32,000 nucleotides of DNA from an uncultured Eubacteriales bacterium. Lineage in GTDB: Bacteria; Bacillota; Clostridia; Oscillospirales; Acutalibacteraceae. The stretch is from contig CAKUFK010000019.1 of NCBI GenBank assembly GCA_934647945.1, positions 1-32,000 of the forward strand. The letters run 5' to 3'. Each line of letters begins with the position of its first letter. Within the stretch, counting starts at the first letter, position 1. The position numbers and the translations under genes are program-made. A model generated the notes under the pieces. It saw only the letters and a list, made by a program, of their open reading frames with translations, was not told where the DNA came from and did not search any database. Below, in pieces: positions 5,676 to 9,833 of this stretch.

Positions 5676-6434
5676 TCACGAGGGCCGGACGGTGACAACG
5701 AAACCGTCCGCGTTGTTTCCCGAAATTTCGGCGCAGCCCTGTTCGGGAAGAGGGATCACCGTCTCTTCCTCCCCGGCCGGCACCACGTAGATCCGGGTGC
5801 CGTCGGGCAGGCGGCGGGGTGAACCGGCGGAATAGGCGCCGAGGGCGGCGGTGTATTCCTCCAGCGTCAGGCCGTCCCGGGCGATCAAGGAGGCGTGAGG
5901 CGTGCCGACATAGCGGAAATGCCAGGGTTCCTGAGCCACGCCGGTGATCCCTTCCTTTCCCGCCTGATACCGTTCGATGAATCCGTAGGCGGGCGCCAGC
6001 TCCCGAAAGCGCTGACACAGACCGGCATAGGGAAACGCGGGGCGGATGAAATCGATCTCTTTTGCCGCCTTTCCCACATCGATGGCTAGCCCAGTCTGAT
6101 GTTCACTGGTGCCGGGATAGGCGATGTACTGCTTGGTAAAAACCTCTCCATTATCTTTCAGGGAGGTCGTATACAGCTCCTCCTGTTCCCGTCCGCTGCG
6201 GTAGCCGCTGACCGGGACAATCCCCTTCCCCGCCGCGCAGGCGGCGAGCAGGGCGCCGAGCGCCCGCGCGGCCGCGCGGTCCAACAGGATATCCGGAAAG
6301 CCCGGCACCGCTTCGCAGAGCCGCTCCCGCAGGGTCTCTTCCGGGAGCCGGAGGGGATGGGTGCGGTTGACCAGGATCAGAGGCCCGTCCCCGGCCGCCT
6401 GACGGGGCAGGCGGAGGACCCGACCGGCGCTCAT
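5676..6434 (-). CDS. vanXY: M15-family D-Ala-D-Ala dipeptidase/carboxypeptidase, VanXY-like (cytoplasmic)
   Basis: Carries the zinc D,D-peptidase signature motifs SGYRSGREQEELY, SEHQTGLAIDV and EPWHFRYVG. No N-terminal TM segment. The ATGA start overlaps the ligase stop. Confidence 0.8.
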   Translation of the reverse strand: MSAGRVLRLPRQAAGDGPLILVNRTHPLRLPEETLRERLCEAVPGFPDILLDRAAARALGALLAACAAGKGIVPVSGYRSGREQEELYTTSLKDNGEVFTKQYIAYPGTSEHQTGLAIDVGKAAKEIDFIRPAFPYAGLCQRFRELAPAYGFIERYQAGKEGITGVAQEPWHFRYVGTPHASLIARDGLTLEEYTAALGAYSAGSPRRLPDGTRIYVVPAGEEETVIPLPEQGCAEISGNNADGFVVTVRPS

Positions 6435-7489
6435 GCCGGTTCCTCCGCCAGGGTAATCAGCCGCTCGGCAATGGCGGAGAAAGGCATTCCCGCCGCCTCC
6501 AGCATTTTGGGATACCGGCTGTGGGCCGTGAACCCTGGAATGGTGTTGATTTCATTGAATACCACGTCCCCGGCGGGGGTCAGGAACATGTCCACCCGGG
6601 CGAAGCCGCGGCAGCCCAACGCCTGATAGAGCACCGCCGCCGTGCCACGGATCTTGTCGCGGCTTTCGGGGGAAATGCGGGCGGGCAGACGGATTTCGGC
6701 GGTGCGGTTGCCGTATTTTTCCTCGTAATCCAGCCAGCGTTCCCCCAGCGCCACTTCATCCACCTCGCCGATGAACAGTTCCCGGTTGCCTATGACCGCG
6801 CAGCCGACCTCGAAGCCGGGGATCTCCTCCTCCACCACCGCCTTGGAGTCGAAGGCAAAGGCCAGCTCCACCGCCGCGGTGAGCTCGTCGGCCCGTTCCA
6901 CCCGGGTGATGCCATAGGAGGAGCCCGCGTTGGCGGGCTTGACAAACAGGGGATAGAGAAGCCCGGCGGCCCGTTCCAGGGGGGATCCCTCCTCCCCTTT
7001 ATAAAGCGTGACCGAGCGGGGGACCCGTACCCCGGCCGCCGCCGCCAGGGTATGGGCGACCTCCTTGTCCATGCAGGCGGCGGAGCCCAATACGCCGCAG
7101 CCCACATAGGGGATGCCGGCCAGCTCGCACAGCCCCTGGACGGTACCGTCTTCGCCATTGGCGCCGTGGAGCATGGGAAACACCACGTCCACCCGCACCG
7201 GACGGACGCCGGCCTCATCCCACTCCAGCAGGCCGTGAACCGACCGGTCGGGAGACAGAGAGGCCCGGATAAGGGGCCTCTCTGTCCAGTGCCCCGCTTC
7301 GATATCGTCGGCGGAACAGGCACAGCGGAACCACTCGCCGCGGCGGGTGATCCCGACCGGGATCACGTCGTACCGCGCGGGATCCAACCCACGCAGCACA
7401 GCCGCGGCGGAGCAGAGGGAGACTTCGTATTCGGGCGAGCACCCTCCAAAGAGGAGGGCGACGGTTTTCTTCTGATCTGCGGTTGTCAT
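6431..7489 (-). CDS. vanG: Van-type D-alanine--D-serine (VanG-like) ligase, ATP-grasp
   Basis: Internal ATG at 7489 (MTTADQKKTVALLFGGCSPEYEVS...). VGCGVLGSAACMDK, FEVGCAVIGN, LDYEEKY and NEINTIPGFTAHSRYPKM align by eye along the whole length with the VanG sequence as I remember it. It is flanked by vanW and vanXY-type genes. The substrate (D-Ser, D-Ala or D-Lac) cannot be fixed without an alignment. Confidence 0.85.
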   Translation of the reverse strand: MTTADQKKTVALLFGGCSPEYEVSLCSAAAVLRGLDPARYDVIPVGITRRGEWFRCACSADDIEAGHWTERPLIRASLSPDRSVHGLLEWDEAGVRPVRVDVVFPMLHGANGEDGTVQGLCELAGIPYVGCGVLGSAACMDKEVAHTLAAAAGVRVPRSVTLYKGEEGSPLERAAGLLYPLFVKPANAGSSYGITRVERADELTAAVELAFAFDSKAVVEEEIPGFEVGCAVIGNRELFIGEVDEVALGERWLDYEEKYGNRTAEIRLPARISPESRDKIRGTAAVLYQALGCRGFARVDMFLTPAGDVVFNEINTIPGFTAHSRYPKMLEAAGMPFSAIAERLITLAEEPA

Positions 7490-8357: not shown

Positions 8358-9833
8358 TCAGGATTCCACCTTTTCGAGCTCGGGAAGCGGCTCGGCCGTT
8401 TGAGGGCCCCCGTCCCTGCGGGCGGTCCCACGGGTGCCGTCTTTACGGCCGATGCCCAAAAGGATGGTGACCACCATGACGGCCAGCATGGCAAAGGAAT
8501 AAAAGACGAAGGGCGACACCTGCATGGCTGTCAGGGGATGGGCGCTGTCCGCGGCAAAGCCCAGGGTGTATACGACGGCCGGGGTCCAGGGCAGGCAGTA
8601 GCACAGGGTGTTCGACTGGGCGTCGAGGAGGTTGGCGGTGCGGTAGGGGCTGATGCCGTACCGCTTGGCAAGCGGCGCCGCAAAGGAGGCGCCGATGGCG
8701 AGGATGGCCGGGGCGTTGAGGCCCATCAGGGCGGACAGGAGGATGACCATCACCGAGATGACCACCTCAGCCCCCCGGGGACCCCGGACCACCCGCCCTA
8801 GGACGGCCAGCAGCTTCTCATCGCCGCCCCCCGCCCGCATGATCGACGTACAGCCGAACAGGAGCAAGGCGAGGACGATGACCTGGATCATGCTGGAAAG
8901 GCCGGTATAGAGCACACCGCCCACAGCGCGGTCCAGCCCCTCCCCCGATACTGTGAACAACGCGGGCTTCACCGCGTCGGCCACGTCAATCTGTACAACG
9001 TCCATCAGACCCGCCGCCACCGCCACCACCGCACCTGAGACGATTCCGATCGTCGCTGCGATGATGATATCCCCGGATTTGACCGCCACGAAAATGGTCG
9101 CGGCCACCGGCAGGAACATCAGCAGGGTCCAGGGATTGTAGGCGGGGGTCTCGCTCCCTCCGCCGCTGCCGGAGAGGACCAGGCCGGCGATCACCAGGCC
9201 GGCGACGGTCAGCCCGCCGGCGGCCAGCGCGTATTTCAGCCGGGAGCGGACCACCCCGGGCACGTCCACCCCCTGGGAGGTGGCGGAACAGATGGTGGTG
9301 TCCGAAACCGGCGCCAGATTGTCACCGAATGCGGCGCCCGAGATGATGGCGCCGGCCAGCAGGCCGGGATGCCCGCCGAGAGCCAGCCCGGCCGGATAGA
9401 GCACCCCCATGCCCGCCGCGATGGTGCCGAACCCCGTACCCGACGCGGTGGCGAACAGGGCGGAGGCGATAAAGGTGATGACGGTGAACAGCGTGCCGCC
9501 GACCCCGATGCCCGCGGCGATCCCCGCCACGCCGGCGGCCAGGCCGGATTCCCGCAGGATCCGGGAAAAGACGCCGGCGAAAAGCCAGCACACCACCGGG
9601 ATGATCGCCTCTTTGCTCGCCATGCCGGCGATCATCGTTTCAGCATACTGCCGCTTGTTTTTGGCAAAGAAAAAGGCGACGATCAAGGCCAGGAAGGCCG
9701 GCAGCCACAGCGCGCCGTCGGATATCGACCCGAAATGGAAGGTGGTAAGCACGATCAGCACCAGGAAAATCACAAAGGGCAGAAAGGACATCCATGCCCC
9801 GCCGTAAAACTCCAGTTTTTTCTTCTCTTCCAA
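8358..9833 (-). CDS. NhaC-family Na+/H+ antiporter-type secondary transporter
   Basis: 491 aa, polytopic. SGTGFGTIAAGMGVLYP, GAAFGDNLAPVSDTTI and a C-terminal NhaC-like region. TTG start at 9833 with GGAGGGGG 8 nt upstream. Its stop TGA (8358-8360) directly abuts the vanW ATG (8357). Confidence 0.85.
   Translation of the reverse strand: MEEKKKLEFYGGAWMSFLPFVIFLVLIVLTTFHFGSISDGALWLPAFLALIVAFFFAKNKRQYAETMIAGMASKEAIIPVVCWLFAGVFSRILRESGLAAGVAGIAAGIGVGGTLFTVITFIASALFATASGTGFGTIAAGMGVLYPAGLALGGHPGLLAGAIISGAAFGDNLAPVSDTTICSATSQGVDVPGVVRSRLKYALAAGGLTVAGLVIAGLVLSGSGGGSETPAYNPWTLLMFLPVAATIFVAVKSGDIIIAATIGIVSGAVVAVAAGLMDVVQIDVADAVKPALFTVSGEGLDRAVGGVLYTGLSSMIQVIVLALLLFGCTSIMRAGGGDEKLLAVLGRVVRGPRGAEVVISVMVILLSALMGLNAPAILAIGASFAAPLAKRYGISPYRTANLLDAQSNTLCYCLPWTPAVVYTLGFAADSAHPLTAMQVSPFVFYSFAMLAVMVVTILLGIGRKDGTRGTARRDGGPQTAEPLPELEKVES

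Follow-up and report, generated by a model that had tools for sequence, protein, structure and literature searches.

The stretch of DNA analysed here (32,000 nucleotides of contig CAKUFK010000019.1, from an uncultured Eubacteriales bacterium; "the window" below means this whole stretch) carries on its minus strand four closely packed genes, which code for a secondary transporter, VanW, a D-Ala-D-X ligase and an M15-family peptidase (Table 1). A first-pass annotation, made from the sequence letters and a list of open reading frames (ORFs), had described four stacked minus-strand genes with almost no spacing, and both the ORFs and the three junctions are exactly as described there. The stop codon of the transporter gene (TGA, 8360-8358) directly abuts the ATG of vanW (8357), the vanW stop codon (7493-7491) is separated by 1 nt from the ATG of the ligase gene at 7489 (TGAcATG), and the stop and start codons at the ligase/peptidase junction overlap as ATGA (6434-6431). 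Each of the internal starts is preceded at 6-10 nt by a purine run resembling a Shine-Dalgarno (SD) sequence (AAGGTGGA, AAGGCGGA and GGAGGAA). The transporter gene has the SD GGAGGGGG at 9848-9841, and its TTG start was accepted because this element and the N-terminal consensus of the homologues (M....KKLEFYGG), which the start fits, agree. The terminator at 9980-9941 sets the 5′ limit of the group, and the promoter and riboswitch of thiT bound it on the 3′ side. From this layout, the four genes are predicted to be one operon. What is new here is the conserved link to a transporter, that is, a carrier-containing variant of the known vanG resistance module in several families of anaerobic Clostridia.

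Table 1 Features of the operon and its immediate surroundings (positions are those of the window).
Feature	Coordinates	Strand	Remarks
Transporter, 491 aa, secondary carrier of the NhaC-like / ion-transporter superfamily	8358-9833	-	TTG start at 9833
VanW, 288 aa	7491-8357	-	NF033128 and PF04294 match
Predicted VanG-lineage D-Ala-D-X ligase, 352 aa	6431-7489	-	ATG at 7489
Predicted VanXY-type cytoplasmic M15 D,D-dipeptidase/carboxypeptidase, 252 aa	5676-6434	-	PF02557 and 4F78 match
Intrinsic terminator of the upstream TauE-family gene	9941-9980	-	18-pair stem, then T-run
Putative promoter/leader region of the operon	9834-9940	-	Dyad, extended -10-like element, SD
Near-consensus promoter TTGACA-17-TATACT	5674-5646	-	Opens the next unit, thiT
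TPP (thiamine pyrophosphate) riboswitch of thiT	5624-5515	-	Rfam, 74.6 bits
thiT, ThiT thiamine transporter	4505-5434	-	

The best NCBIfam model for the ligase is that of VanG (NF000091), with 478.5 bits against a cut-off of 495. This is about 107 bits above any model for Ddl, D-Ala-D-Lac or VanC/E/L/N ligases (371.8 bits for the best Ddl model, around 362 for the generic D-Ala-D-Ser and D-Ala-D-Lac models and around 290 for VanC/E/L/N). The nearest solved structure is also that of VanG (4FU0, E = 6.5e-115), followed by VanA structures and then by Ddl structures. For the six sister ligases from the other loci described below, VanG is the best model in every case, with scores from 460 to 555, four of them above the cut-off. 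The specificity of these enzymes is associated with Tyr-216 and Leu-282 in DdlB, Phe-250 and Arg-322 in VanC2, and Asp-243, Phe-252 and Arg-324 in VanG. The omega loop reads WLDYEEKY in the window ligase, FFDYTEKY in VanG and EFYAYDTKY in DdlA (7U56), and the C-terminal motif is HSRYP compared to ISMYP in DdlA. Alignment to the DdlA-type structure 7U56 places rwLdyeeky on sefYaydtky (Leu for Tyr) and ahSRyp on niSMyp (Arg for Met). The residues by which Ddl membership is recognised are thus not those of the window ligase, which has no omega-loop Tyr and carries Arg instead of a non-basic residue at the position of DdlB Leu-282. The omega-loop Leu (Tyr in Ddl) and the Arg of SRYP (Met or Leu in Ddl) are, from the alignments, the diagnostic positions; in the module ligases the first is Phe or Leu in 10 of 10 sequences, and the second is Arg in all 9 that were aligned. 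Asp-243 and Arg-324 of VanG are kept in the window ligase, and Phe-252, which we take to be a determinant for D-Ser, is replaced by Leu. The earlier view of the ligase as Van-type rather than housekeeping Ddl, which a common clade with Ddl would have refuted, agrees with the best model, the nearest structure and the specificity positions, and no grouping with Ddl was seen. The three motifs cited for that view (GGCSPEYEVS, AACMDK and FEVGCAVIGN) are all in the translation, but AACMDK is not specific to Van ligases, as DdlA presumably also has SAACMDK. By its sequence, the ligase is assigned to the VanG lineage and not to housekeeping Ddl, and its second substrate (X) is probably D-Ser.

The closest solved structure to the peptidase is VanXY-G (4F78, E = 2.3e-70, residues 7-249 covered). 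Its zinc and catalytic motifs (SEHQTGLAID and EPWHFRYVG) are conserved and its N-terminus has no hydrophobic anchor, in agreement with the annotation of a VanXY-like enzyme with M15 zinc motifs and no transmembrane anchor. The scores are 105 bits for PF02557, 238.8 bits for the NCBIfam model vanXY_G (cut-off 500) and 197.8 bits for vanXY (cut-off 250). The product of the second gene, already annotated as vanW, passes the curated equivalog NF033128 (vanW-gen, 379.4 bits compared to a cut-off of 365) and matches PF04294 with 135.7 bits. To our knowledge, the function of VanW has remained unknown since the vanB operon was described. Its AlphaFold model (predicted local distance difference test, pLDDT, 89; predicted template modelling score, pTM, 0.85) gave no fold match in the PDB with Foldseek (best E = 0.2, TM < 0.3), and a sequence search of the PDB gave no match either. 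Across 34 homologues, the segments GGG-C (126-130) and E-R-H-x-H (149-153) are invariant. Because Cys-130, Glu-149, His-151 and His-153 are among these residues, an enzyme is suggested, and together with the model this suggests an uncharacterised enzyme fold.

The occurrence of the transporter in other genomes was surveyed with an alignment of transporters, each species being represented by a single genome, and 80 loci (L001-L080) were obtained. Eight of them have van genes adjoining the transporter. The order transporter-VanW-ligase-VanXY is found in the window, in two human-gut Ruminococcaceae metagenome-assembled genomes (MAGs; L001 and L002) and in an uncultured Clostridia MAG (L003), and L005/L089 have transporter-VanW-ligase with no VanXY. 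A second order, ligase-VanXY-transporter-VanW, occurs in a member of the Peptococcaceae (L026) and in three Diplocloster species of the Lachnospiraceae (L046, L049 and L073), as well as in three loci obtained by exact-protein look-ups, from Christensenellaceae NSJ-44 (L081) and from metagenomes (L084 and L090). In both orders, VanW is directly 3′ of the transporter in every module locus. The module is therefore spread over Ruminococcaceae, Lachnospiraceae (Diplocloster), Christensenellaceae, Peptococcaceae and unclassified Clostridia, so that the transporter adjacency, whose conservation in relatives had been proposed as a test, holds in at least five family-level lineages and two gene orders. 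Chance adjacency was rejected on the ground of this recurrence across families and gene orders. In neighbor-joining (NJ) trees, which were built without support values, the van-linked transporters form a single clade nested among non-van relatives. Since this clade is single, the set recurs in two orders and the ligases match VanG best, the link between transporter and van genes is ancient and has outlived a rearrangement. The conserved adjacency is strong evidence for functional coupling, and the module is placed as a basal lineage of vanG-type clusters and an evolutionarily conserved unit. The pairing with VanW being fixed, it also suggests that VanW and the transporter act together. Outside the operon, the window and L001 have ThiT, TauE, LysR and chromate transporter genes in common, and thiT also neighbours the module of L002.

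Some module loci have further genes related to the cell wall or to D-Ala nearby. In L084 (466-7725) and L090 (80-7625), a dlt-like operon is oriented divergently from the ligase gene, head-to-head, and codes for an AMP-binding protein, a carrier protein of 78 aa, an MBOAT protein and a further protein. It is preceded by genes for an Asp/Glu-family racemase and a transglutaminase-like protein, a second D-amino-acid theme beside the module. In NSJ-44 (L081, 4010-6905), a YkuD L,D-transpeptidase with PG_binding_1 is encoded just 5′ of the module, together with an MR_MLE-family enzyme that may be a dipeptide epimerase.

Genes missing from the window were searched for with Pfam on 25 of its ORFs and with tblastn using VanT, VanR and VanS representatives. 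Pfam identified no Ala_racemase or Acyl_transf_3 ORF and no VanH in the 32 kb, and neither the window nor any of 12 module loci gave a tblastn match to VanT. No two-component system adjoins the operon; the window's only pair maps to 29.1-31.6 kb and shares no more than 36% identity with the VanR/S representatives, and no VanR/VanS is adjacent in the module loci examined. The absence of VanT, VanRS and VanH noted in the first-pass annotation is thus borne out for the whole window. Its other large ORFs are ordinary chromosomal genes (among them APH, chromate transporters, LysR, ThiT, TauE, sugar catabolism, and MetRS, the last judged from its sequence).

A different picture was obtained for vanG-like loci in general. 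Metagenome contigs scanned with a ligase alignment yielded 80 loci with ligases 47-58% identical to that of the window, plus one fragment at 83%; these are the best-scoring matches and not a random sample. The transporter is within 4.5 kb of the ligase gene in none of the 80. Their usual layout, according to neighbour ORF clusters with representatives checked by Pfam, is R-S-(W)-ligase-XY-T. Of the 47 loci whose downstream flank is at least 3.5 kb long, 40 have VanT, with its Acyl_transf_3 and alanine-racemase domains; of the 49 with at least 3.5 kb upstream, 40 have VanR/S. In the NJ tree, the ligases linked to the transporter branch apart from the VanT/VanRS-type clade, which holds Enterococcus faecalis VanG. 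The distribution of the transporter versus VanT/VanRS is near-exclusive. The complete genome of Aminipila butyrica (CP048649; L172, locus 8050-12658) has the cluster vanR-vanS-vanW-ligase-vanXY, with neither VanT nor the transporter adjacent, and VanT-less vanG-like clusters therefore exist in more than one form.

Since no dedicated sensor is encoded, the operon would be expressed constitutively or else under a regulator whose gene is not linked to it. The window, L001 and L002 share about 100 nt of nearly identical sequence 5′ of the operon, and the DNA further upstream and in the flanks cannot be aligned. This region has an imperfect dyad, TTCAGAAAAC-N7-GTTTTCCTCCGGAA, at 9921-9891 on the minus strand (with degenerate positions, its right arm is also written GTTTTCCTyCkGAA), and an extended -10-like element, TGgTATGCT, at 9875-9867. 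A strict sigma-70 scan found no consensus promoter at 9834-9940, and an Rfam scan found no regulatory RNA family upstream of the operon, its sole match being the thiT TPP riboswitch. We infer that the operon promoter lies within 9834-9940. An unlinked regulator could use the dyad as its operator, and expression is probably either constitutive or controlled via this conserved element.

The kind of substrate carried by the transporter was considered from its family and from the neighbourhood of its relatives. It matches the Pfam family PF03553 (Na_H_antiporter) with 88.9 bits, and reaches 46.7 bits with the NhaC equivalog TIGR00931, for which the cut-off is 370. Its annotation as a member of the NhaC family is consequently right for the broad Pfam family but not for NhaC in the strict sense. 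A profile search against the PDB gave no match. The 1052 homologues found, many of them about 70% identical, come from amino-acid fermenters such as Sedimentibacter, Anaerovorax, Aminipila, Tissierella, Alkaliphilus, Geosporobacter, Anaerotignum and others. Among the genes that recur around the carrier in the 72 non-van loci, sigma-54 response regulators are present in 57 loci, histidine kinases carrying an SBP_bac_3 solute-binding domain in 52, OrtB in 35 and OrtA in 34. That the ortAB neighbours are mere paralogues was rejected, as OrtA and OrtB exceed the NCBIfam equivalog cut-offs for 2-amino-4-oxopentanoate thiolase by a wide margin (137.6 compared to 70 bits, and 838.5 compared to 550 bits). 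A full ornithine operon around the relatives was rejected too, since no ord/oraSE/orr cluster recurs within 9 kb; a few loci extend into a 2-oxoacid:ferredoxin oxidoreductase, identified by sequence appearance only. Because the relatives sit in sigma-54-controlled operons for the sensing and catabolism of amino acids, often with OrtAB, the transporter is predicted to be an amino-acid carrier and not a Na+/H+ antiporter. An alignment of 83 carriers has 144 invariant columns, and a single site (Thr-329, versus Ile) separates the van-linked from the other sequences, which suggests that van-linked and OrtAB-linked carriers have the same or very similar substrates. The relatives also form a compact and widespread cassette of their own, [SBP_bac_3 histidine kinase]-[sigma-54 response regulator]-[carrier]-[OrtA]-[OrtB], seen in L087 (6499-13197), in L088 (10001-16806) and in 38 of the 80 loci L001-L080. 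In this cassette the 2-amino-4-oxopentanoate thiolase stands alone, with no ord/oraSE/orr nearby, beside a carrier and an amino-acid sensor of its own.

Considering these results together, we find it reasonably probable that the operon is a vanG-lineage module with neither racemase nor regulator, in which a carrier fixed beside VanW manages the pool of D-Ser and D-Ala. The ligase would form D-Ala-D-Ser or another D-Ala-D-X, VanXY would cleave D-Ala-D-Ala and trim pentapeptides ending in D-Ala, and the peptidoglycan precursors would in this way receive new termini, as in D-Ser-type resistance. The carrier would handle the small D-amino-acid pool needed for this re-termination. Its most likely role would be the uptake of external D-Ser (or Ser) in place of VanT, which is favoured because the clusters that have the carrier are not those that have VanT, and because the carrier occupies the VanT slot in the second gene order. 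A possible additional role would be the expulsion or exchange of the D-Ala released by VanXY, and handling of D-Ala is favoured because of the OrtAB association and the near-identical conserved core. A specificity resembling that of CycA (D-Ala/D-Ser) would reconcile the evidence from the VanT slot with that from OrtAB. With no dedicated sensor, the phenotype would then follow the supply of substrate. The first-pass annotation had already raised the import of a D-substrate; the separate clusters of carrier and VanT and the amino-acid-carrier subfamily speak indirectly for this idea, but the OrtAB link fits D-Ala equally well and some VanT-less clusters have no transporter. More tentatively, the NhaC-like subfamily could be an unrecognised carrier of small D-amino acids (D-Ser/D-Ala), the module making re-termination and vancomycin tolerance conditional on environmental D-serine instead of on a racemase and a drug sensor. 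We consider this stronger version possible but doubtful; if true, gut Clostridia would have a glycopeptide tolerance that is constitutively encoded and gated by a nutrient.

Several observations weigh against the D-Ser/D-Ala module. The substrate and direction of the carrier are deduced purely from sequence context, and its near-identity in the van and OrtAB contexts points to one substrate; we know of no role for D-Ser in the OrtAB context, whereas D-Ala and ornithine have one there. VanT-less vanG-like clusters with no carrier exist (Aminipila butyrica, L166 and L105), so that VanT can be encoded elsewhere or be unnecessary. The counterpart of VanG Phe-252 is Leu in the window ligase, the ligases of the window, L003 and L005 score slightly under the NCBI cut-off for VanG, and the peptidase is under both curated VanXY cut-offs. 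Finally, the clades are taken from NJ trees without support values, and the contrast with VanT/VanRS is drawn from the best-scoring metagenome loci and not from a random sample.

The most serious alternative, which we judge rather unlikely, is that the carrier exports or exchanges the D-alanine released by VanXY, thereby leaving less cytoplasmic D-Ala for the host Ddl and for subsite 2 of the Van ligase, while D-Ser comes from an unlinked racemase. OrtAB converts its substrate to acetyl-CoA and D-alanine (EC 2.3.1.263). D-Ala is the only metabolite common to the OrtAB and VanXY/ligase contexts, and the relatives that adjoin bona fide OrtAB are about 70% identical to the window carrier, with the invariant columns and the single discriminating site given above. 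Exchange of a precursor for a product is moreover typical of this transporter superfamily, as in ArcD and MleN. Such an exporter would however explain neither the source of D-Ser nor the separate clusters of carrier and VanT, and the kinase sensing external amino acids in the relatives suggests uptake and not efflux. The published prediction for nhaC is likewise arginine/ornithine uptake and not alanine export (PMC6615313).

It appears improbable that the operon serves housekeeping or remodelling of the cell wall instead of resistance, with the VanG-lineage ligase acting constitutively as a dipeptide ligase, perhaps as the main one, VanXY trimming or recycling termini and the carrier salvaging D-Ala or D-Ser from the medium. 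The missing sensor and regulator would fit such a function, as would the chromosomal site, syntenic with L001 (ThiT, TauE, LysR and chromate transporter), the uniform GC content of the operon (0.62-0.65), the basal position of the module ligases outside the VanT/VanRS clade, and the cell-wall and D-Ala genes near other modules (YkuD in L081, the dlt-like operon and Asp/Glu-family racemase in L084 and L090). A VanXY that destroys D-Ala-D-Ala makes little sense beside a ligase meant to produce it, however, and the ligase does not have the Ddl tyrosine. We give very little credence to a carrier with no functional tie to the van genes, either an importer of ornithine or another basic amino acid or a plain cation antiporter: SBP_bac_3 sensor domains often bind basic amino acids, the Pfam match is to Na_H_antiporter and arginine/ornithine transport is predicted for nhaC in ord operons (PMC6615313), but the adjacency has been kept through a change of gene order and in at least five families, with abutting or overlapping stop and start codons of carrier and VanW, the van-linked carriers are monophyletic, and the NhaC equivalog score is far under its cut-off.

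Several features of the surroundings concern the window itself. The thiT promoter begins 2 nt past the vanXY stop codon with no terminator in between, and read-through from the van operon into the TPP riboswitch is possible. Just 5′ of the operon, two neighbouring TauE/SafE-family ORFs (10005-10948, minus strand) each match the C-terminal half of the Pfam model only, and may represent a pair of half-size transporters that arose by splitting or duplication. At 13000-15000 and 1-1000 the GC content is 0.48-0.54, compared to about 0.63 elsewhere; the low-GC region surrounds a GrpB gene and an ORF of 327 aa (13046-14029) for which Pfam gave no match, and may be foreign DNA.

As four of the six sister ligases pass the NCBI cut-off for VanG, gut surveys already record such clusters as vanG. 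Should these have neither racemase nor sensor, their phenotype may depend on external D-Ser and their risk would be read differently in resistome surveys. Because the module ligases are basal, they may be close to the pool that gave rise to mobile vanG clusters. The conserved pairing also gives a concrete functional hypothesis for an uncharacterised transporter subfamily of amino-acid-fermenting Clostridia (more than 1000 homologues, around 70% identical), which bears on the role of this subfamily in OrtAB/ornithine operons, and its invariance with respect to VanW offers a new handle on that protein. A literature search found no paper tying NhaC to vanW or vanG, no described D-Ala/D-Ser carrier of the NhaC-like family, and no description of a carrier-containing vanG-type cluster.

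Among known systems, the OrtAB cassettes are the closest for the carrier. An operon ord-ortBA-oraSEF-orr-nhaC has been listed as sigma-54-dependent, with nhaC predicted to transport arginine/ornithine (PMC6615313). The cassette carriers belong to the same subfamily as the window carrier and are about 70% identical to it, and orthology with the published nhaC of ord operons is presumed; unlike them, the window carrier has neither OrtAB nor sigma-54/two-component control and is paired with VanW. CycA, the D-Ala/D-Ser/Gly permease of Escherichia coli, is a functional analogy only, as one carrier for both D-Ala and D-Ser, since it is from an unrelated family (APC). The carrier seems to substitute for VanT, and in the order ligase-VanXY-carrier-VanW it sits after vanXY, in the canonical slot of vanT. 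It has no racemase domain, however, and could not convert L-Ser to D-Ser, and the two are unrelated in sequence (Na_H_antiporter fold family compared to Acyl_transf_3 and Ala_racemase). According to PMC4542195, the N-terminal membrane domain of VanT is thought to take up L-Ser. With the vanG operon of Enterococcus faecalis (vanU-R-S-Y-W-G-XY-T) and the vanG-like cluster of Clostridioides difficile (vanR-S / vanG-XY-T) as references, the window operon shares the core order vanW-vanG-vanXY, with VanG as the nearest ligase, VanXY-G as the nearest peptidase and a curated VanW. It differs from vanG operons in having no VanT, VanRS/VanU or VanY and in the joined NhaC-like carrier, and its ligase differs from E. 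faecalis VanG in its place outside the VanT/VanRS clade, in the replacement of Phe-252 by Leu and in its score with the VanG model (478.5 compared to 495). Clostridium innocuum reportedly has an intrinsic, chromosomal D-Ala-D-Ser pathway with no VanRS sensor, which would be a precedent in a gut Clostridium, but this pathway is said to have a linked racemase and no such carrier. By its gene content, the window cluster falls outside the canonical vanG type with respect to VanT and VanRS; by sequence, its ligase, peptidase and VanW clearly belong to the same lineage.

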